Position numbers and translations under genes: made by a program. Below are positions 42,508 to 52,912 of a DNA stretch of 64,000 bases, piece after piece. The DNA comes from Promethearchaeia archaeon (GTDB lineage Archaea > Asgardarchaeota > Lokiarchaeia > Sigyniarchaeales > SOKP01), in NCBI GenBank assembly GCA_029856155.1, contig JAHQWL010000023.1:32001-96000 (forward strand). The letters are read 5' to 3'. Every line of letters starts with the position of its first letter. Within the stretch, counting starts at the first letter, position 1. Below the pieces are notes generated by a model. The model saw only the letters and a list, made by a program, of their open reading frames with translations. It had not been told where the DNA came from and searched no databases.

Positions 42508-43419
42508 TTATACTAAATGATGAAATTCTTCAGCATTAATAATGACTTCTTTTAAAATTTGAAAGTTTTTATCCTCTCCATGAATTAAAAATATCTTATT
42601 TTTGATTGGAATTGCTGCTTCTTTTCCGATTAAAACCCATTCTTCTTTAGTTAAATTTCTAACTATTGAACCTTCTTTAAATTTAATATAAACTAATGCT
42701 CCTAAAAAACCATTAAATTTAGTTTCTTCAAGTTTCACATCTTCAAAGTCGGGAATTTCATTATTTTTACCTTCATTTTTAATCTCATATTCAGTCTTAC
42801 TCAATAGCAAGTTCAAATTAGCTTGAATTAAATTATTATCATTCTCTATATTTCTTTTATGATTATACTCGAAAATGATGAGACCACATTCCTGTGTAAA
42901 TGTTCCTTTATGACCTATCAGTTCATAATCATATACTATTCGACCTAAAGATTCTGAATGTTCGATAACTTCTGATTTAACTTTCCACCTCTTTGAAATA
43001 AGAGGTTCTATGTATTTTTGAGAACCAGGATGAATAGTATCAATCGTTAACTCTTTTTTTTCTTGATATAGTTTATCTAGAGTATCGCCAATATACAACC
43101 TCTTTTGTTTTAGTTTCTCAATCTTTACTTCCAAATTATCTACTATTTCATTAAAAATTTCCAATGGGGGTTTAGCTATAAATTTCATCCTTCGAGGTTG
43201 TTTCCTTATTTCTAAAATCTCAATCCAACCTTTATCACTTAGTTTTTCTAATATTCCATATAATGTTGTACGTGCAATTTGAAGATTATATTTTAATCTT
43301 CCTACCATATCACCATTATGCCCTCTTTCAACTAGTGCTAAATAGACTGTAGCTTCGTCAGCAGTTAAACCAAAATCTTGTAAATCTTGAATATATATTT
43401 CTTTTTCCTTATCTTTCAT
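42508..43419 (-). CDS. TrmB-family HTH regulator with an uncharacterised C-terminal domain
   Basis: LQDFGLTADEATVYLAL, IARTTLYGILEKLSDKGWI, AKPP. Confidence 0.85.
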   Translation of the reverse strand: MKDKEKEIYIQDLQDFGLTADEATVYLALVERGHNGDMVGRLKYNLQIARTTLYGILEKLSDKGWIEILEIRKQPRRMKFIAKPPLEIFNEIVDNLEVKIEKLKQKRLYIGDTLDKLYQEKKELTIDTIHPGSQKYIEPLISKRWKVKSEVIEHSESLGRIVYDYELIGHKGTFTQECGLIIFEYNHKRNIENDNNLIQANLNLLLSKTEYEIKNEGKNNEIPDFEDVKLEETKFNGFLGALVYIKFKEGSIVRNLTKEEWVLIGKEAAIPIKNKIFLIHGEDKNFQILKEVIINAEEFHHLV

Positions 43420-43461: not shown

Positions 43462-43493
43462 TATATAAATATGTTGTCGAGATAGGACGACAA
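43462..43493 (-). promoter_or_regulatory. TATA box plus palindromic operator TTGTC-N10-GACAA
   Basis: Plus strand: TATATAAA 43462-43469, TTGTCG-AGATAGGA-CGACAA 43474-43493. Confidence 0.6.
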
Positions 43494-43557
43494 TAAGAAT
43501 TTATTTAAATAGAATTCTTATTTTTGTTTATTTAGATAATTTAAAAATTGAAATGAG

Positions 43558-44259
43558 ATGATAATTGTGAGTAAAAGTAAAAAAATATGTGAAAGAATCC
43601 CTGAAGGTGAAGCAATATTAGATCAGATTGACTTCACAACAGAAGAATATAGTGAAGCATGCAGAAAAATGGAAGGAGAATATCGGCGTTTGATAAATTT
43701 TATATTTAAAAAACTTGATATTAAAGAAAATTCAAAAATTTTAGAGATCGGGCCAGGACCAGGATGGATTGGAATTATGATGGCAAAACAAGATCCTTCA
43801 CTGACAATAATTGGAATTGAACTTTCTAAAGATATGATGCGTGTAGCTAATAAAAACATAAGAAAGGAAGGTATTGATGATCGAATTTCTTATATTCACG
43901 GAAATGCTGAAAATATGTATCAATTTTTAGATAACACATTCGATGTTGTTTTTGGAAATGGTACCCTTCATCATTGGGAAAATCCAGTGAAAATTATTAA
44001 CGAAATTTTTAGAGTTCTTAAACCAAATGGAATTTTTTGTATTTCTGATGGTCGTCGAGACATAAGATTAGGAGCAAAAGTAATTTTTCATACAATGAAA
44101 TGGTTTATCCCTAAATTTATGAGAATTGGTTGGAAAACTTCGATAAATGCGGGATACACACCTGAAGAATTAACAGAAATATTAGATCAATCAGATCTAA
44201 AAGGAAAATATGAGTTAAAAACTGATCTTTTTGATCTATTAGTTTATAATAAAACTTAA
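43558..44259 (+). CDS. class I SAM-dependent methyltransferase
   Basis: ILEIGPGPG, FDVV...TLHHW, RVLKPNG. Confidence 0.9.
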   Translation: MIIVSKSKKICERIPEGEAILDQIDFTTEEYSEACRKMEGEYRRLINFIFKKLDIKENSKILEIGPGPGWIGIMMAKQDPSLTIIGIELSKDMMRVANKNIRKEGIDDRISYIHGNAENMYQFLDNTFDVVFGNGTLHHWENPVKIINEIFRVLKPNGIFCISDGRRDIRLGAKVIFHTMKWFIPKFMRIGWKTSINAGYTPEELTEILDQSDLKGKYELKTDLFDLLVYNKT

Positions 44260-44279
44260 TTTAAAAAAGGGCAGAACAA

Positions 44280-44747
44280 ATGCCGCAAATTGTAAAGGGA
44301 GGTAAGCACTTATTTGGATGGTCAAGAGTAGGAAATCAAGGTAAAATTAACATTCCTCCCGAAGCTTTTAATGAGTATAATTTAAAACTGGAGAAATACG
44401 CAATCTTATTTTCAGGTAGTAAAACTTCAGGTGGATTTGGATTAAGTTCTGTGAGGATTTTAGAAAATTCTATCATGAAAGAACTAATAGATAAAAACTC
44501 TTCACTAGCTAATTATAGGATACCTGAGGGAGAGTTTATTGAATTTAAAAATAAAAAGTACTGTTGGGTAGCAATCCAAAAAGATAGTAGTATAAATCTA
44601 CCAGAAAAAACTTTACACGCTTTTGGAATTAATAAAAATGATGATTTGCTTTCTGGAAGGGGTAGCCATTTAGCTATCGGATTTATCGCAAAAGGACCAA
44701 TCTTTAAAGAAGCAAAAAAACATCCTGAAATAAAGGTCTTTGAATAA
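44280..44747 (+). CDS. tandem AbrB-like domain protein
   Basis: GWSRVGNQGKINIPPEA and a second copy, IQKDSSINLP...FGI. Confidence 0.6.
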   Translation: MPQIVKGGKHLFGWSRVGNQGKINIPPEAFNEYNLKLEKYAILFSGSKTSGGFGLSSVRILENSIMKELIDKNSSLANYRIPEGEFIEFKNKKYCWVAIQKDSSINLPEKTLHAFGINKNDDLLSGRGSHLAIGFIAKGPIFKEAKKHPEIKVFE

Positions 44748-44821
44748 TAGTTGAAAAATTATCATTTAATTAAAAATTTCATCATTTAAAAATAAAAAAA
44801 ACTTAAGTTTTGATTTTTAGT

Positions 44822-45646
44822 CTATCCCCGAAATCTTTTTTGCAGAGTCTTTCCATGTAGAAAGAATGACAGGAATAAAAAAATAAATCCAAACAGCAAT
44901 AAAATTGTAAAATCGAATAATAATCCACAAGTACCAAATGAACTATTTCCTCCTAATCCTGTATTAATTATATCAATAAAATAAGTTAATGGAGATATAA
45001 CAGCTAGTGGAGTCGAACTTATTGGCATAAAAAGAGGACTGATAAATATTAATGGAAATTTAATTAGAAATGTTAAAATCATTGTATTTGCTGGTATATC
45101 GGTTGGAGGTACTGATAATATCAAACTAAAACTCGAAAAAGAAAAAGCTGCTACAATTATACCGATAATGACAATTAATAAATCTATGGAAACTTGGATG
45201 GATAAGAAGATTATCCCTAATACAAGAGGAACCAAAGAAAATAATACTCCAAAAATCGAAGAACCCCAAACACTGCCTAATAAGACAGTTTTGATTGAGA
45301 TGGGACATGTTATTAATCTTTCAAGAGTTTGTTGTCTCGTTTCCCATGGAAATACAACAGGTCCGATGGATGTAGATGTTAAAAATAAAACCATGGCCAT
45401 TAATCCAGAAATCATATAAATTGGCTCAATATTTCGCCCAATTGTAAAAGCAAAAAAAAGGATGACTGGAAATAATATTCCTTGAATTACGACTGGACCT
45501 TTATTATAATAAATTCTGAAATCTTTCTTCGCAATAGCAAAAGATCTTCTTATTTGAGTAATTATTTTTTTAATTTTAGATTGTTCTAATATAAAAGCTT
45601 TTTCGTTAATCTTATCCACCTCCCTCAATAATTTTGAGAAAAGCAT
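44822..45646 (-). CDS. ABC-2 type transporter permease
   Basis: TLERLITCPIS, SPLTY; six transmembrane helices. Confidence 0.88.
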   Translation of the reverse strand: MLFSKLLREVDKINEKAFILEQSKIKKIITQIRRSFAIAKKDFRIYYNKGPVVIQGILFPVILFFAFTIGRNIEPIYMISGLMAMVLFLTSTSIGPVVFPWETRQQTLERLITCPISIKTVLLGSVWGSSIFGVLFSLVPLVLGIIFLSIQVSIDLLIVIIGIIVAAFSFSSFSLILSVPPTDIPANTMILTFLIKFPLIFISPLFMPISSTPLAVISPLTYFIDIINTGLGGNSSFGTCGLLFDFTILLLFGFIFLFLSFFLHGKTLQKRFRG

Positions 45647-46604
45647 CTTCTAAAGTTGGCTGGTGAGTATTTAATTGAGTTATTTTTAGGTTATTCAATT
45701 TAGCATGGTTAACTATTTCATGTAATGCATCGTTCACATCTTCCACAATAATATGATAACCATCTTTTATTTCTTGCACTTCTTTAACGGTCATTAGATT
45801 TTTAATCCCTTTTATTTGTTGTGCATTCTCGTAATAACAATCAATTGCGAGATAGTCTTGAGTTAATTTTTTTAAATTATCGGGGGTATCCAACCTAATA
45901 ATGTGTCCATTATTAATTATGGCTATTCTATCACAGAGCTCATTAGCAACACCCATATCATGTGTCGTTAAAAATATAGTCATTCCTCTTTTGTTATAAT
46001 CTTTGATTAATTGTTTGATTACACGAGCAGATTGAATATCTAATCCACTTACAGGCTCATCTAGAAATAATAATTTTGGTTTATTCATTAACGCCATACA
46101 TAATAATAATCTTTGTTTCATTCCTTTGGAATACTTTTTTGCTTTGAAATGACGCTTTTCAAACAGTTCAAACTTCTTAAGTAAAATTTCGGCACGATTT
46201 AGATTTTCCTTTTTATGAATTCCATATAACTCTCCAATGAATGTTAAATTTTGAAGGGCAGTGAGATCCATATATACATTTGCCATCTCGGGAACATTAC
46301 CGATTATTTGTTTTATTGGTATTGGATGGTTCCATATATCTTCTCCAAATATCTTAATTCTTCCTTTAGTAGGTTTTAATACGCCTGTTAACGATCTAAT
46401 AGTAGTGGTTTTCCCTGCCCCATTTGGCCCTAAAAAACCAAAAATTTCTCTTTCTTTTACTACAAAACTAATATTGTCTATAGCCTGAACAGTTTTATCT
46501 TTACTCTTTTGAATTTCCTTACTCTTTCTACTTTTTTTTCCTTGTTTAGCTATTTTAAAATATTTTGATAAGTTATTTACTGTTATTGCATTCATAATTA
46601 TCAC
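45612..46604 (-). CDS. ABC transporter ATP-binding protein
   Basis: GPNGAGKTT, YSKGMKQR, LFLDEP, TLEDAF. Confidence 0.93.
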   Translation of the reverse strand: MIIMNAITVNNLSKYFKIAKQGKKSRKSKEIQKSKDKTVQAIDNISFVVKEREIFGFLGPNGAGKTTTIRSLTGVLKPTKGRIKIFGEDIWNHPIPIKQIIGNVPEMANVYMDLTALQNLTFIGELYGIHKKENLNRAEILLKKFELFEKRHFKAKKYSKGMKQRLLLCMALMNKPKLLFLDEPVSGLDIQSARVIKQLIKDYNKRGMTIFLTTHDMGVANELCDRIAIINNGHIIRLDTPDNLKKLTQDYLAIDCYYENAQQIKGIKNLMTVKEVQEIKDGYHIIVEDVNDALHEIVNHAKLNNLKITQLNTHQPTLEDAFLKIIEGGG

Positions 46605-46646
46605 CTTTAGAAATAAAATGAAAAATAATTAAGAGATTAATTAGAG

Positions 46647-46802
46647 CTACTCATCCTTATCTAAAAGCTCTATATGTTTGAACAACTCTGAAAGTGATTG
46701 ATCACCATGATACTTAATAACCTGATTTATAGAACAACCGTTTGGATGATTCTTCTTAATTTCTGGATGTGAACAATCACACTCTTGTTCTTTTATTTTC
46801 AC
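46647..46802 (-). CDS. unannotated 51-aa Cys/His-containing small protein
   Basis: GTG start after GGTGA; MKIKEQECDCSHPEIKKNHPNGCSINQVIKYHGDQ...DE*. Confidence 0.6.
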   Translation of the reverse strand: MKIKEQECDCSHPEIKKNHPNGCSINQVIKYHGDQSLSELFKHIELLDKDE

Positions 46803-46950
46803 TTTTCACCATTTATTGCTTTATTATACTAGGTTTAATAATTCAATTTAAAATTTATTTAGTTAAATATTGAATTTAACCAATCAAAATTTTTATTTAA
46901 ATATTTCTTATTTTATATTATAGTCATAAAGATTAGAAAATTAAGATGTT

Positions 46951-47301
46951 ATGAAAGAAATTGAACTCTCTGAAATAGAAGATTACGTACGTCCATTACA
47001 CTGTGGAATTCGATGGAAAATAATTGAATATTTAAGAGATGATCCAAAATCTTCTGATGAGATCTTTAATCATTTAAATGAGTTAAGAGAAAAAGTAGCA
47101 GAGGAAATGAAGTATTGTAAAGGAGAATGCAATCATGTTATAAAAAAAAAGTTGAAAAAACCTACATTATATTATCATTTGAGAGAATTAGAATCAGTTG
47201 GAATCATTTTAATGGAAGAATACAAACCTAGCGAACAAAAAAGAGCTCCAGAAAAAGTTTGGAACTTGATTATGGAGAAATTAATCATAAATTTAAAATA
47301 A
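46951..47301 (+). CDS. ArsR-like winged-helix regulator with a Cys/His insertion
   Basis: IRWKIIEYL, CKGECNH insert, PTLYYHLRELESVGII. Confidence 0.75.
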   Translation: MKEIELSEIEDYVRPLHCGIRWKIIEYLRDDPKSSDEIFNHLNELREKVAEEMKYCKGECNHVIKKKLKKPTLYYHLRELESVGIILMEEYKPSEQKRAPEKVWNLIMEKLIINLK

Positions 47302-47434
47302 ATGTCTGCTTTTTCATCAATTCTGAAGAATACTAACCGCAATAGAATCATTCTTTAATCTATTTTGTAGTATATTCGATAATTATATACTAATAGAATT
47401 CAAAATTATGATTTATTTTCTTTTCATCAATACA

Positions 47435-47500
47435 TTTAAATAGTATGATTCGTATGATCATATTAATATGATCATACTTATATGATCATATCAATATGAA
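47435..47500 (+). promoter_or_regulatory. TATA box followed by a tandem palindromic operator array
   Basis: TTTAAATA 47435-47442; TATGATCATA at 47453, 47467 and 47481 (14-bp period); partial copies at 47444 and 47495. Confidence 0.7.
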
Positions 47501-47509
47501 TCTTAAAAG

Positions 47510-47968
47510 GTGATTAAAATAACTGAATTTCCTGATAAAAAAGGCAAATATTTTTTTGGCTCAGTAAAGGTTGGGGAACGCGGTCAAATTGTTATTCCTC
47601 TTAAAGCTAGAGAAGTTTTTGGAATTGAAGCTAAAGATAATGTATATATTTTTGGTGAATTAAATAAGGGTTTAGGTTTAACTAAAAATGTGGAAATTGT
47701 TAGTAAAGAGTTAAAAAAACACGAATACTATTTTGGTGCTGCTAAAGTTGGTGAAAGGGGTCAGATTGTTATTCCCCAGGAAGCTCGAGAGATCTTTAAA
47801 ATAAACTCTGGAGATCTTATTCTTGTATTTGGAGATATTAAAAAAGGGCTTGGCTTTACTAAAGCAACTAAATTAAAAAATTTTGCTATCAAGCTGTTTC
47901 AAGCATTTGGAGATGGTTTTGAGGATATTCAGGATAATAATAAAGGTGATTTAAATGAAGAAGAATAA
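47510..47968 (+). CDS. tandem AbrB/MazE/SpoVT-domain regulator
   Basis: Two copies of KVGERGQIVIP..ARE.F.I. Confidence 0.9.
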   Translation: MIKITEFPDKKGKYFFGSVKVGERGQIVIPLKAREVFGIEAKDNVYIFGELNKGLGLTKNVEIVSKELKKHEYYFGAAKVGERGQIVIPQEAREIFKINSGDLILVFGDIKKGLGFTKATKLKNFAIKLFQAFGDGFEDIQDNNKGDLNEEE

Positions 47969-48488
47969 AAAACAATCAAATATAGATTTTAGGTTTATGT
48001 CATTTTTCTTTAAAATTCGTGATAGATTTCACCCGCCTATAGCAAAAATTATAAAGGCTAATATTAAGCAAGGAGAAATTGTTTTAGATTATGGGTGCGG
48101 TTCAGGAAGTTATACAATAGCTGCTGTTGAGATAGTAGAACCAAATGGGAAGATTATTGCTGCAGATATTCATCCATTAGCATTGGAAAAAGTTAGAAAA
48201 AAAGCTGAAAAAAAAGGTTGTACTAATATTGAAACCATTCAAACAGATTGCGCTACTGGATTAGATAATGAATATATTGATAAAGTAATTTGTTTTGATG
48301 TATTTCATGACATCCCTCATAAAAATGATATATTAAAAGAATTTCATCGAGTTTTAAAATCAAAATCAATACTTTCTTTTGATGATCATCATATGAATGA
48401 AGATGAGATAATAGATTCCATCACTTCCAAAGGGCTCTTTAAATTGGCTGAAAAGAAGGATCAACAATATAACTTTATTAAAATCTAG
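47955..48488 (+). CDS. class I SAM-dependent methyltransferase
   Basis: VLDYGCGSG, HRVLK. Confidence 0.88.
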   Translation: MKKNKKQSNIDFRFMSFFFKIRDRFHPPIAKIIKANIKQGEIVLDYGCGSGSYTIAAVEIVEPNGKIIAADIHPLALEKVRKKAEKKGCTNIETIQTDCATGLDNEYIDKVICFDVFHDIPHKNDILKEFHRVLKSKSILSFDDHHMNEDEIIDSITSKGLFKLAEKKDQQYNFIKI

Positions 48489-49271
48489 GTGGAAACAAGG
48501 ATGGAAGATAAACCTAAATATGGATGGTATGTGAAGGATCTAATTATTGGATTCACTATCATAGGATTAATAGGATTATCTGCTTTTATTTACGGATTTT
48601 TAATAGACGGTATAGCGCAAATAATTCTAATAATTTCAGGAGTAGCTGTTGTTTTGGTATTTTTATGGCCAGGTATCGGAATGATAGTATTGAATCTATT
48701 TTTATTGCGAAAAATACCAAAAATAGATTTAATTGCTAGAATGAAAGCATTAGATAAAATAAGTAATCCACAGATTTTAGATGTTGGATGTGGAACTGGA
48801 AGAACAGCAATTAAGATTGCTAAGGCATTAAAAAATGGAGGACATTTATTTGGAATTGATATTTATTCGAAAATGGCAATTTCAGGAAATAGTTTAGATA
48901 CCGTACAAAATAATGCTATAGTTGAAAAAGTAGAAGAAAGAACTACGTTTAAAAATGGTTCTGCTATAGACATCCCTTTTGAAAACAATAGTTTCGATAT
49001 CGTTATTGTTTCTTCAGTACTCCATGAAGTACATGATCAAAACGGTCAAGATAAAGCAATGAAAGAGCTTTATCGAGTTTTAAAACCGGGTGGATATCTT
49101 TACTTGAGTGAATGGAACCGAACATCATGGCAATTAATAGCATTTAGTGGCTTGTGTTGCTTTGTTTTTAAGCATAAAGATTACTGGGAGAAATTACTCA
49201 AAGAAAATAAATTTAAGAATATAATATATGAGAACATCACAGGCTTTGGAATTTTTACCGCAAGAAAATAA
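48489..49271 (+). CDS. membrane-anchored class I SAM-dependent methyltransferase
   Basis: Two N-terminal transmembrane helices; ILDVGCGTG, PFENNSFD, RVLKPGG. Confidence 0.88.
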   Translation: METRMEDKPKYGWYVKDLIIGFTIIGLIGLSAFIYGFLIDGIAQIILIISGVAVVLVFLWPGIGMIVLNLFLLRKIPKIDLIARMKALDKISNPQILDVGCGTGRTAIKIAKALKNGGHLFGIDIYSKMAISGNSLDTVQNNAIVEKVEERTTFKNGSAIDIPFENNSFDIVIVSSVLHEVHDQNGQDKAMKELYRVLKPGGYLYLSEWNRTSWQLIAFSGLCCFVFKHKDYWEKLLKENKFKNIIYENITGFGIFTARK

Positions 49272-49279
49272 ATTTTTTT

Positions 49280-49822
49280 TTATTCTATTTTTTTATATTT
49301 AAAAATAATACCTTCTTCAATCCAACTCCAATGTAACATTGGTCGTCTAAATTCTCCTTCAAATTCAAAACTAGATTTTTTTATCTGTTCTTGGACTTTA
49401 TTTAATTCAATTCCATAAGAACCTATATGAGTAGCATGATAAGATAAAAATCCGGATTTATCTTTTAAAACTCGATGTATTTCATTTAATAATTTGATTC
49501 TATCGTCTTTATCGAGTAAATGATACACATCATACATTAACACAACGTCTATAAAATTGTTCTTCAATGGAATCGATATTTTTTTCGAAGTCTTTATGAT
49601 TTCGATATTCTTAATATTTTGAGACTTAATTTCAATAGATAATTCCTCTAAATGATCTTCATCGTAATCAAGAGCATAAATTTTACCAGTATTTCCTATA
49701 ATTCGCGAAGCAATTATTGAATATACTCCTGTTCCACATCCAAAATCTAAGATTTTTTGTCCACTTTTAATTCCAAATTCTCTAAGTATACTTTCTCCCT
49801 TTGAATTTAACCATTCTTCCAT
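49280..49822 (-). CDS. class I SAM-dependent methyltransferase
   Basis: ILDFGCGTG, HRVLK. Confidence 0.88.
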   Translation of the reverse strand: MEEWLNSKGESILREFGIKSGQKILDFGCGTGVYSIIASRIIGNTGKIYALDYDEDHLEELSIEIKSQNIKNIEIIKTSKKISIPLKNNFIDVVLMYDVYHLLDKDDRIKLLNEIHRVLKDKSGFLSYHATHIGSYGIELNKVQEQIKKSSFEFEGEFRRPMLHWSWIEEGIIFKYKKIE

Positions 49823-49912
49823 GTTTATTTCTAATCTTTATTATTTATTAAAATAAAGGATATGAAAAATTTCTATAAAAAGAAAGAATTGTGAAAAATA
49901 TAAAAATAACCT

Positions 49913-51163
49913 TTAAAGTTTTAAGATAATACTCAATAATATTGGAAATTGTTCTTCAGAACCCCAAACGACATAGATTTTATTTTGAATAGGAACAGCT
50001 ACATGCCTAGCCGCCACAATCCAATCCAACCCAACATTATTTCCAGTCTCGGTTTCTTCTTTAAATTTAAAATACATTGTCATTCCTAAATAATCTTGAA
50101 TTTTTGTATCCTCAATTTTAATATCTTCTAGATCTGGAATCGTAAATTCTTTAATATCAAGATCAGGTTGTATCGGTTCTCTCATTTTTTCTGAAGAAAG
50201 CTGTAATGCTGCTCTGATGATAACTTCTTCCTTTATTTTTTTATTATATTCAAAAATAATGAGACCACAATCCTTTTCTTTTCCTACTATTCCAAGGGAG
50301 TTAAAGTCAAATGATTTTTCGCTATATAATTGAAAATCTTTCTTTATTTCTGAGATATCTATCCATCCATTCTCAAGAGTTTCACCCATTATATATCGAA
50401 AACTCTTTAAAATCTTTAATTCCTCTTCTTTTTGTTGAATTCTTTCATCAAATATGCTTGTTAAGGGTCTTGCTACAAAATATTGTGCACTTTTTGGCAA
50501 TAATGGCAATTTAATTATCCATTCTTTACTAATTAAGCGATCAATAATACGATATATAGTTGTTCTTTTAATAGATAAATCTTCATCTAACTCACCTACT
50601 TTTGCCCCTTCATTCCCCTTTCTTAGCAATGTTAAATATACTTTTGCTTCTTCAATACTCAATCCAAATTTAAGTAATCCAAGTTCTTGCAAATTATTAG
50701 TATCATCAAGAAGTATTCTTGGAGTAGCCCATTTTAATTCTTCTACTTTTCCTAATTGGGTATCTAAATCCATATATGGCTTTTTTGTACTTAATTCACT
50801 TAAAGTTCGAGATGCTTCCATCATTCCAAGTCGCATCAATCCATCAGGAGCAATCTTACAAATAATTTTCCTCTCATCGTCTTTAAACCCTAAAATTCCT
50901 CCTTTTTTAATAGGATCTATCCCTACCAATCTTTCAGGAGTACACTGAATTATTAAATATTTTATATCTGAAATTGTAAGAGAAGTATGTTTCATTGATT
51001 TCCAAACTGAATTAATTTCATTAATATCACCACTAATATTCCAATTCTTTGTTGAATATTCTATTTCGTTTTCTCCTTTAATTATTGCTGCTGATATTGT
51101 TTTCGATTCAGACTTTATTAAATTCTTTAGAGCATGCTTTACTTTTTCCATATGTAGAATCAT
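49913..51163 (-). CDS. profilin-domain / TrmB-HTH fusion protein
   Basis: aa ~5-125 resemble Asgard profilin (AAII..YSTKNWNIS..I...KY.IIQCTPERLV...KGGILG). aa ~160-240 are a TrmB HTH (FGLSIEEAKVYLTLL, IKRTTIYRIIDRLISKEWI). The C-domain is paralogous to ORF 42508-43419. Confidence 0.8.
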   Translation of the reverse strand: MILHMEKVKHALKNLIKSESKTISAAIIKGENEIEYSTKNWNISGDINEINSVWKSMKHTSLTISDIKYLIIQCTPERLVGIDPIKKGGILGFKDDERKIICKIAPDGLMRLGMMEASRTLSELSTKKPYMDLDTQLGKVEELKWATPRILLDDTNNLQELGLLKFGLSIEEAKVYLTLLRKGNEGAKVGELDEDLSIKRTTIYRIIDRLISKEWIIKLPLLPKSAQYFVARPLTSIFDERIQQKEEELKILKSFRYIMGETLENGWIDISEIKKDFQLYSEKSFDFNSLGIVGKEKDCGLIIFEYNKKIKEEVIIRAALQLSSEKMREPIQPDLDIKEFTIPDLEDIKIEDTKIQDYLGMTMYFKFKEETETGNNVGLDWIVAARHVAVPIQNKIYVVWGSEEQFPILLSIILKL

Positions 51164-51199
51164 TATCTCTTTTTATGTATATTAAAAAAAAAATAAAAA

Positions 51200-51403
51200 T
51201 TATTTTTCTCCAAATTTCTTTTTTATTTCATCTAATACTTTATCATAATAGCTTTTTTCTTTAGATTCTTGAATTTTTGTGAAATATTCCGGCATGATTA
51301 GTCTCTTAGATTCATTTTTTATCTCCTCATCTGTCCAAATTATCCCATCATCCAATATGATACAAGGTATACCATCCAAAAGTTTTATTCGTATCATTTT
51401 CAT
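51200..51403 (-). CDS. small hypothetical protein (~67 aa) between actin and the profilin-TrmB gene
   Basis: Start reassigned to ATG 51403 to avoid overlap with actin; MKMIRIKLLDGIPCIILDDG... Confidence 0.5.
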   Translation of the reverse strand: MKMIRIKLLDGIPCIILDDGIIWTDEEIKNESKRLIMPEYFTKIQESKEKSYYDKVLDEIKKKFGEK

Positions 51404-51432
51404 CACTTTTAAATATTTTTTGTTGAAACTGT

Positions 51433-52578
51433 TTAAAAGCATCGATGGATAACTTGGGGTCCCATCTCCTTGTATTCTCTTCGAGTAATCCACATTCTAT
51501 GAAATGTTTTTAAGGAACTTAAGATAGATCCTCCTATCCACACAGAATACATTCTTTCTGGAGGAGCGATTATCTTTACATCTATAGATTCAGCAACCTG
51601 TTCTTTTATTTCTCGAGTTAAACGCTCTTTAATTCCGGGAAACATTGTAGAACCGCCTGAAAGGACAATATTACTATAAAGATCTCTGCGTAAATCTACA
51701 TCACATTCAGATATTGCTCCTACCACTTCATCATCTAGAGGAGCTAATTCTTTACCAATCACAGAAGGATTAAATAAGCATTCTGGAGCCAAGAATCTTT
51801 CAATCCCTATTGTGATAGTTTCACCATCAGGAAGCATGAAATTCTTTGCCATACCAGCTACCTTATTTGAAAGTAAAATCTCTTTTTCAGGATCAATAGC
51901 AACATAGCAAAGCTTTTCTTTTATTTCTCTTACAATCTCTTTCTCAGCTGATGTATAAAAGGAATATCCATTTTGACGTAACAATCTCTGTAAATATGTT
52001 GTAACATCCCTTCCAGCAAGATCAATTCTCTGGATTGCATGACTTAAAGCAAATCCTTCAAATATTGGTACTATATGAGCTACTCCATCACCAATATCGA
52101 TTACACATCCTGTTGTTCGACCAGAAGCGTAAAGTGATAATACTGCTTGAGTTGCTATATAAAGCGCCGGAACATTAAATGTTTCGAACATTATTTCTGC
52201 TAGTTTTTCTCGATTTGATCGAGGATTCAATGGAGCTTCAGTTAATAATATTGGGTACTCAGATGGATCAATTCTTAAATCAGTATAAAATGTATAATGC
52301 CAAATTCTTTCCATTGCTGGCCAATCTTCCACAACTCCATGCTCAATAGGAAATTGTAAATTCATTATTCCTTTTAATTCCATCGCTTCTTCACCAATAT
52401 ACCATTCTCGACTATAATCCTTTACATCGGGCATTATGTTTCCATATTTTGGTTTACCAATCACAGTAGGAAACACTGAACGTGGCTGATCTTCTCCTCC
52501 AAATCCATTTTTTGATATTCCGGTCCCATTATCTATAACAATAGCTCTATTATTTCTAAAATCCCCGTTGACTGAAAT
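51433..52578 (-). CDS. actin (Lokiactin-type); N-terminus extended to a probable ATT start
   Basis: The frame upstream of the called GTG encodes AIVIDNGTGISKNGFGGEDQPRSVFP. Also LLTEAPLNP, DIGDGV, IVLSGGSTMFPG, YSVWIGGSIL, HRCF. Confidence 0.95.
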   Translation of the reverse strand: MSVNGDFRNNRAIVIDNGTGISKNGFGGEDQPRSVFPTVIGKPKYGNIMPDVKDYSREWYIGEEAMELKGIMNLQFPIEHGVVEDWPAMERIWHYTFYTDLRIDPSEYPILLTEAPLNPRSNREKLAEIMFETFNVPALYIATQAVLSLYASGRTTGCVIDIGDGVAHIVPIFEGFALSHAIQRIDLAGRDVTTYLQRLLRQNGYSFYTSAEKEIVREIKEKLCYVAIDPEKEILLSNKVAGMAKNFMLPDGETITIGIERFLAPECLFNPSVIGKELAPLDDEVVGAISECDVDLRRDLYSNIVLSGGSTMFPGIKERLTREIKEQVAESIDVKIIAPPERMYSVWIGGSILSSLKTFHRMWITRREYKEMGPQVIHRCF

Positions 52579-52767
52579 TTTAAAACCACCTCTTTTTTTG
52601 ATTATAAGAACTGAATTTTATTAAAGGAATCAATAATTAAATAGATAGTAGACTATTTTTCTTGGAAGATATTCCCAGAAATGATCTAATGTTGATTATC
52701 CATAGAATTCATATTTGATTCCTAAATTTAATAAAACTTTTTCTTGTTGTAATGATATTTTAACTAG

Positions 52768-52801
52768 TATATAAACTTTGTCACATCATCGTGACAAAGT
52801 T
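52768..52801 (-). promoter_or_regulatory. TATA box plus perfect 11-bp inverted repeat upstream of actin
   Basis: Plus strand: TATATAAA 52768-52775; AACTTTGTCAC-ATCATC-GTGACAAAGTT 52774-52801. Confidence 0.7.
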
Positions 52802-52912
52802 GTGCCATTAATATAACAATTTAAAAAAAAATATTTGAAAATTAGTATTATTTGAATTGACGGCTCTATATACCTTATAATGTTTATAGGAATAATTAAA
52901 TTTAAATAAAAA

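Follow-up and report, generated by a model that had tools for sequence, protein, structure and literature searches.

Two palindromes as probable operators of paralogous TrmB-type regulators, one with a profilin-like head, at an actin locus and a methyltransferase locus of an Asgard archaeon

To our knowledge, almost nothing is known about the regulation of eukaryote-like cytoskeleton genes in Asgard archaea. The closest described systems are regulators of the TrmB family, for which palindromes at the transcription factor B (TFB) recognition element (BRE) and TATA box are typical, and autoregulation has been reported or proposed for several members (PMC4158304). The TGM operator, used by TrmBL1 of Pyrococcus furiosus and Tgr of Thermococcus kodakarensis, is TATCAC-N5-GTGATA (PMC4158304). 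Here we describe two palindromes of the form TTGTC-N10-GACAA in a 64,000-nt stretch of a Promethearchaeia archaeon (assembly GCA_029856155.1, contig JAHQWL010000023.1, positions 32,001 to 96,000), called the window in what follows. One stands at the promoter of an operon for an accessory actin and a profilin-TrmB fusion protein, the other at the promoter of a paralogous TrmB gene. We consider it probable that they are promoter-proximal operators of these two TrmB-type regulators, each acting mainly on its own transcription unit.

An earlier note on this DNA had given the Thermococcales motif correctly (PMC4158304) and likened the actin-side palindrome to it; the likeness is a resemblance only, with one base per half-site and the spacing different. 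Neither site has the TGM sequence, the two being TGTCAC-N6-GTGACA at actin and TTGTCG-N8-CGACAA at the paralogue; position 2 of the half-site is A in TGM and G here, and the spacer is N5 there and N6 here. Common to both systems is a dyad at the BRE/TATA, with 6-bp half-sites one base from TGTCAC in the case of TGM, which is recognised by a PF01978 winged-helix protein. For Tgr autoregulation has been proposed, like our reading of the two sites here (PMC4158304). The TGM regulon exceeds 30 genes and its target is sugar metabolism, whereas here each genome has a single site, the putative target is an actin gene and no sugar-binding effector domain was detected.

The genome of the window (label G000) has 4.1 Mb and 28% G+C, the window being G000:C26:32001-96000. 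The genus survey covered 54 genomes, and more distant relatives were added from contigs of metagenomes and metagenome-assembled genomes (MAGs). Site A, or operator A (O1), denotes the actin-side palindrome, site B, or operator B, the TrmB1-side palindrome, and O2 a second, degenerate dyad; TrmB1 is the profilin-less TrmB paralogue and actin-2 the accessory actin. The features at the two promoters and the two regulator genes are as follows.

52778..52797, no strand: putative operator A (O1), TTGTCAC-N6-GTGACAA, with the core TGTCAC-N6-GTGACA at 52779-52796
52768..52775, minus strand: TATA box of the actin-2 operon, TTTATATA (TTTAAATA in most relatives), a conserved footprint block
52801..52818, minus strand: candidate degenerate dyad O2, TGTTAT-N6-GGCACA, 22 bp centre-to-centre upstream of O1
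49913..51163, minus strand: profilin-TrmB fusion, 416 aa, with a profilin fold at about residues 1-125 and a TrmB winged helix-turn-helix at 163-219
43474..43493, no strand: putative operator B, TTGTCG-N8-CGACAA, with the TrmB1 TATA at a distance of 4 nt and the methyltransferase TATA at 10 nt
43462..43469, minus strand: TATA box of the TrmB1 gene, TTTATATA
43504..43511, plus strand: TATA box of the divergent methyltransferase operon, TTTAAATA
42508..43419, minus strand: TrmB1, 303 aa, matching PF01978 with 42.6 bits (cutoff 25.6)

On the forward strand, TATATAAA at 43462-43469 is followed by TATG and by TTGTCGAGATAGGACGACAA at 43474-43493; likewise, TATATAAA at 52768-52775 is followed by CT and by TTGTCACATCATCGTGACAA at 52778-52797. 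The earlier note had read both strings and their identical half-sites and spacing accurately, as well as the perfect 11-bp inverted repeat (arms 52774-52784 and 52791-52801) in which the second palindrome is embedded. There are exactly two copies of TTGTC-N10-GACAA in the whole genome, these two, and both adjoin a minus-strand TTTATATA box ahead of a unit that encodes a TrmB paralogue.

Shuffling the window gave an expectation of 0.05 matches, with two or more matches in 0 of 100 shuffles. Enrichment of TTGTC/GACAA was not found genome-wide, the other spacings from N0 to N20 having 0-5 copies each; the distinctive feature of the two copies is their location, not their number. As a look-elsewhere control we used size-matched random pairs of intergenic regions from this genome. 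Any common palindrome with 5+5 arms and equal spacer was present in 26% of pairs, a high figure because such palindromes have A/T-only arms; a common palindrome with at least two G/C per arm was present in about 1 pair in 10,000 (p about 1e-4).

The shorter TGTC-N10-GACA has seven copies in this genome, which is background, and the five besides the two operators are without promoter context. Across the genus, the looser TTGTCR-N8-YGACAA has 27 sites compared with 22 for the reversed control pattern; nine of the 27 lie away from both promoter types (seven coding, two intergenic), and none of these nine is near a TrmB gene. Since a scan of this genome at up to two mismatches gave no other convincing target site, the paralogues that we associate with TTGTC/GACAA would be local, single-operator regulators, and the palindrome would not be a regulon motif.

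Site A can be followed through the genus with its longer core. In the pattern scan TGTCAC-N6-GTGACA was found in 17 of 54 genomes, at one site per genome, and its reversed control at 0 sites in the 54. Sixteen of the 17 sites are accessory-actin promoters, and these are all the accessory-actin promoters of the genus (16/16), while 0/16 core (housekeeping) actin promoters carry even TGTC-N10-GACA. The operator lies 2-3 nt upstream of the TATA box on the minus strand in the window; among the 16 promoters the gap between operator end and TATA (TTTAAATA or TTTATATA) is 3 nt in 15 and 6 nt in one. Anchoring the 16 promoters on the palindrome gave the following pairwise identities.

Two half-sites of operator A: 100%
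TATA box of the actin-2 promoter: 88%
6-nt spacer of operator A: 45%, with 15 different spacers among the 16 promoters
Upstream flank of operator A: 41%

TGTCAC and GTGACA are thus invariant in 16 genomes whose fusion proteins are 92-49% identical. The gene upstream of site A varies by genome (co-directional leuB, a divergent small gene or others) while the distance to TATA is fixed, and the site, judged by its placement, is therefore part of the accessory-actin promoter. As in a promoter-proximal operator, dyad symmetry goes with a position fixed relative to BRE/TATA and with conservation above the neutral background.

The same observations bear on the notion that the inverted repeats are hairpins (a leuB terminator or a structural DNA element) and not protein sites. 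In the window the arms of site A do measure 11 bp, and leuB, on the same strand, has its stop codon about 115 nt upstream of the site. The long arms are not conserved, only 6-7 bp being so, and the 16 genomes hold no compensatory change, the arms being invariant and not co-varying. A T-run follows the leuB stop directly, the gene upstream differs between genomes at an unchanged TATA distance, and at site B, which is flanked by two divergent promoters, no transcript would be expected to end. We regard hairpins as hardly tenable, and return to the two palindromes as operators.

Upstream of O1 the 16 promoters have a single non-trivial dyad offset above background, -22 (or -21): a dyad with at least 7 of 12 matches stands at -22 in 11 promoters and at -21 in the other five. 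Its consensus, TGTTWW-N6-ATAACA, is present in 16/16 promoters 21-22 bp upstream of O1, centre-to-centre. This O2 spacing equals two helical turns and suggests cooperative binding at site A. In two distant metagenome relatives with fusions 49-53% identical, the layout is a variant one: the dyad is followed after 3 nt by a third TGTCAC half-site, which adjoins the TATA box (L110:2160-2210 and L111:1876-1916).

The 17th copy of TGTCAC-N6-GTGACA is found at L094:856-873 (G033:C428:856), between two tandem genes for large secreted proteins. It is probably a chance match, about 3-4 such matches being expected in 200 Mb.

The protein encoded beside site A combines two recognisable parts. Its winged helix matches PF01978 with 41.6 bits (cutoff 25.6). 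Pfam profilin, PF00235, stays below the gathering score on the fusion (15.4 bits against 25, E 0.02), and the N-terminal domain was therefore judged by its fold. The AlphaFold model is confident in parts only, with a mean predicted local distance difference test (pLDDT) value of 56.8 and 70-86 in the N-terminal domain. Foldseek with this domain returned profilins for all of the top 25 matches, those of Loki and Odin first (E 3e-8); against Loki profilin-2, Loki profilin-1 and Odin profilin the template modelling (TM) score, normalised by the length of the matched chain, is 0.75-0.81 at 25-28% identity. The modelled fold justifies the name 'profilin-TrmB fusion'. In the recognition helix, IKRTTIYRI, nearly invariant in 13 orthologues, residues K199, R200, T201, I203, Y204, R205 and I206 do not vary at all, while 11 orthologues have T and two have H at position 202. 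A C-terminal domain is common to the fusion and TrmB1; these C-terminal halves gave no Pfam match at E up to 1, sugar-binding effector domain included.

At least 149 sequence clusters make up the fusion family; where a source is named, it is an Asgard-archaeon MAG or a marine-sediment metagenome, mostly under the label Promethearchaeota. Public records label the proteins merely 'helix-turn-helix domain-containing' or 'hypothetical', and full-text literature searches found no paper on a profilin-helix-turn-helix fusion or on the operator of sites A and B. Other profilin-like proteins are encoded in the genome: in one of 437 aa (G000:C2:4540-5853, L096) the profilin-like N-terminus is fused with a leucine carboxyl methyltransferase domain (PF04072, E 2e-31), and 136-, 211- and 231-aa forms are encoded at G000:C34:33477-34112, C28:4391-4801 and C21:21136-21831.

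TrmB1 and the fusion, which the earlier note had called paralogues, are close to each other (E 1e-38) and to no other protein of the genome, with the recognition-helix core RTT[IL]Y in common; by sequence comparison they are the genome's only two members of their TrmB subfamily. Regulators of the TrmB family are built of a winged helix, a long dimerisation helix and a C-terminal alpha/beta effector domain; in the model of TrmB1 (pLDDT 88) one sees a winged helix, a helix of 36 residues and an alpha/beta domain. Over the full length TrmBL2 (5box) and TrmB (3qph) match its fold best, but at low TM-scores of only 0.26-0.40; a sequence search against solved structures returned MarR matches alone (E about 0.1). 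In the genus TrmB1 is near-identical in G000, G064, G027 and G005, 81% identical in G008 and 51% in G062 and G070, and five further orthologues of 79-48% identity come from metagenome and MAG contigs.

Site B accompanies this gene as regularly as site A does the actin-2 operon. The intergenic region of 12/12 TrmB1 orthologues (identity 97-48%) contains TGTC-N10-GACA, and nine of the 12 have the exact TTGTC-N10-GACAA; the inner bases vary (TTGTCG or TTGTCA, CGACAA or TGACAA). A TATA-like box lies 1-4 nt from the site on the TrmB1 side in the 12 orthologues, and on the methyltransferase side a TATTTAAA box lies 10-11 nt away in the loci examined. The five-base core TTGTC...GACAA with N10 spacing is, on this comparison of orthologues, a family-level motif. 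Conservation upstream of orthologues, which the earlier note had named as a way to check its proposal, was thus found in 16/16 accessory-actin operons, the two distant relatives of variant layout and 12/12 TrmB1 loci. The more distant paralogues (about 30% identity, L081-L083) have other repeat layouts around their TATA boxes, which we could not reduce to the TTGTC/GACAA motif.

On its other side site B faces a second promoter.

43558..44747, plus strand: divergent unit of an S-adenosylmethionine (SAM)-dependent methyltransferase gene (43558-44259, by Pfam) and a 155-aa open reading frame (ORF, 44280-44747)

The divergent pairing of TrmB1 and methyltransferase is present in 11/12 orthologue loci and in one further contig; alongside the L114 orthologue no methyltransferase was called. 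The methyltransferase unit is a probable second target of operator B.

A separate palindrome at 43493-43521, with 9-bp arms ATAAGAATT and AATTCTTAT, is centred on the methyltransferase TATA and is not conserved in G008. Another SAM-dependent methyltransferase gene (49280-49822) lies directly downstream of the fusion gene, and such a methyltransferase is a conserved neighbour of both TrmB paralogues, divergent from TrmB1 and downstream of the fusion.

The distribution of sites and genes indicates which regulator would bind which site. Eleven genomes have the actin-2 operon and a perfect site A but no close TrmB1. Conversely, G005 has kept TrmB1 and site B without actin-2 or site A; of the fusion it has a remnant (L042, G005:C4:86022-86372) comprising the last 117 or so codons, 81% identical and with one TAG, which looks like a deletion of the actin cassette. 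Neither paralogue is therefore needed to keep the other's site. This distribution tells against one master paralogue binding both sites (TrmB1 the actin operon, or the fusion TrmB1 and the methyltransferase). Some cross-binding is plausible, since the two sites agree in their outer five bases and their spacing, and the two proteins in the helix core RTT[IL]Y, yet the inner positions 6-7 are fixed differently, AC in 16/16 at site A and G/A in 12/12 at site B. We consider a single master very unlikely.

Alternatively, the palindromes could be genuine operators of a different transcription factor, whose gene lies elsewhere. Winged-helix proteins are numerous in archaeal genomes, and paralogues of about 30% identity exist in the genus. 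Against this, site A is found only where the same operon encodes the fusion (16/16), the 37 other genomes and the core-actin promoter being without it, and site B accompanies TrmB1 in 12/12. One would have to suppose an unlinked factor whose only target comes and goes, every time, with the gene of a different regulator; this is unparsimonious, and we think such a factor unlikely.

In our preferred reading, each site probably serves the regulator encoded next to it as operator. Sites are seen only beside a gene for a member of the TrmB subfamily. Throughout the family the recognition helix is I-x-RTT[IL]Y-x-I, and the TGTC core is common to the sites; the two x positions of the helix change from clade to clade (K/R, A/G, G/A), and so do positions 6-7 of the operator (AC, GT or GA, AA). 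At the actin locus a fusion dimer, or two cooperating dimers, would bind operator A (O1, with the weaker O2 two helical turns upstream), and this binding would control the fusion's own operon together with the accessory actin. TrmB1 would bind operator B, TTGTC(G/A)-N8-(C/T)GACAA, between its own TATA and the divergent methyltransferase TATA. The earlier note's interpretation of the palindromes as autoregulatory operators thus gains support from conservation and placement, and none of its refuting conditions that computation can address was found to hold; the binding by the paralogues itself is inferred.

Several points weigh against this reading. The genome-wide scan that the earlier note had proposed gave a count of two, which is at chance level, and the case rests on position and conservation; across the 54 genomes, the motif is essentially confined to these promoters. 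Among the 12 TrmB1 promoters are four that scarcely differ over their whole length and hence do not count as independent evidence. Only three clades underlie the correlation of helix residues with site positions. Conservation of the ACAA in the right half-site of operator A could partly reflect the BRE itself. Finally, in this genome and four others of the genus, with operator and TATA about 190 nt from the actin ribosome-binding site, TATA-like strings occur nearer the actin gene, where a second, operator-free promoter may exist.

The direction of regulation can be considered from position. In the BRE two adenines stand at -34/-33, and as a rule of the TrmB family a site upstream of the BRE/TATA activates and one downstream represses (PMC4158304). 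Taking the TATA 8-mer as -30 to -23, the proximal half-site of operator A falls on the BRE position (about -39 to -34); on the TrmB1 side, site B overlaps the promoter's BRE, and on the other it ends about 3 nt short of the methyltransferase BRE. By analogy the family position rule would favour activation and the BRE overlap would favour competition with TFB. Because the proximal half-site covers the BRE, we lean slightly towards repression of the regulator's own promoter over activation.

The actin-2 operon includes these further features.

51433..52578, minus strand: accessory actin (actin-2), 381 aa, Pfam Actin E 2e-130
51200..51493, minus strand: small ORF between actin-2 and the fusion gene, 67-97 aa, in most operons but not all
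52590..52765, minus strand: long leader between operator/TATA and the actin ribosome-binding site, with a stretch of about 135 nt that is absent in 11/16 relatives

Only 16 of the 54 genomes searched have actin-2. Its identity is 85% with the core actin, which is nearly invariant, has an ATG start (G000:C4:51355-52482 in this genome) and occurs in almost every genome of the genus. The fusion gene follows actin-2 in 16/16 genomes, and intergenic gaps in the operon are 36-49 nt or the genes overlap, which is compatible with co-transcription; we infer that the fusion gene is co-transcribed with actin-2. The small ORF matched no Pfam family.

The listed actin-2 ORF lacks its N-terminus, and the frame stays open further upstream. 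In that frame no ATG, GTG or TTG precedes the phosphate-1 loop, and translation apparently starts with the ATT at 52576-52578 on the minus strand, 6 nt after the ribosome-binding site GAGGTGGT. Relatives in the genus conserve the context of this ATT; the equivalent codon of a distant relative is TTG (L110:2306).

The earlier note had placed a TATA box against both palindromes, leading into the units. This stands with one correction: in this genome the actin-side TATA is about 190 nt upstream of the actin ribosome-binding site and not right before it. From the operator end to that ribosome-binding site there are 50-56 nt in 11/16 genomes and 172-189 nt in the other five, the window genome included; one distant relative also has the long form, and long-leader loci include L052, L053, L054, L095 and L111. 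The extra stretch of about 135 nt could be a long, possibly regulatory, mRNA leader or could hold a second promoter. It was considered as a miniature inverted-repeat transposable element and rejected, there being no other copy in the genome. Leader and promoter matched no Rfam family apart from a sub-threshold FinP match (E 0.88), and an alignment fold of five long leaders gave a weak consensus of -7 kcal/mol. A possible long-range pairing of AGGAATCA with TGATTCCT in the long leader is weakly supported.

The profilin domain of the fusion may sense actin. A complex model of this domain with actin-2 scored 0.76, compared with 0.02 for the best control; of 80 solved complexes 58 attain this mark, and of 110 mismatched pairs two do. 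At least 87% of contacts are common to the model runs, the partners have pLDDT values of 84 or more, and the modelled contacts are on actin residues 170-177, 289-293 and 355-378, the barbed-end face. Because Loki profilin-actin complexes are already solved and the model may reflect memory of them, it shows the likeness of the predicted interface and not binding by this copy. In the mechanism that we propose, actin monomers on the fusion's profilin head would modulate its DNA binding. This could close an actin-sensing loop, in which the profilin head reads free actin monomers and so sets occupancy of operator A and the output of actin-2 and regulator, TrmB1 with its near-identical operator being the ancestral module that received the grafted sensor; we put this loop forward tentatively, as possible rather than probable.

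If the loop holds, an Asgard archaeon may tune an actin gene by sensing actin. Two putative operators are now defined to the base, together with two candidate regulators, and the paralogues provide built-in specificity controls, the outer TTGTC/GACAA being common and the inner positions 6-7 different. Control of an actin gene by actin, through a transcription factor headed by a profilin, becomes amenable to a simple bench experiment.

As a cis-element, a TrmB-type palindrome in the regulator's own promoter is of an ordinary kind; the interest is in the target and the sensor domain. Operators at the TrmB trehalose/maltose promoter and those of Lrs14 and LrpA overlap or abut the BRE/TATA of their own operon, as here (PMC4158304). 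Such placement could block loading of TBP and TFB, in those systems and likewise at sites A and B. The trehalose/maltose system differs in its motif, TACT-N3-AGTA, in its sugar effectors and in being from a different phylum. Stand-alone Asgard profilins (Loki profilin-1 and -2 and Odin profilin; PDB 5yed/5yee, 5zzb and 5zza) have the fold predicted for fusion residues 1-125, and the model puts these residues on the same barbed-end face of actin. Unlike them, the profilin of the fusion is joined to a DNA-binding regulator, in an operon with actin and a probable operator. In eukaryotes, MRTF-SRF controls actin genes by the pool of monomeric actin (G-actin). The actin-sensing loop, if true, would be an archaeal counterpart of this G-actin/MRTF-SRF logic, reached by convergence. 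There is no homology between the two (RPEL motifs and a MADS box in one, profilin and a winged helix in the other), and the actin input here is a model prediction; the likeness is one of logic only, that of a regulator with an actin-monomer-binding module acting on an actin gene.

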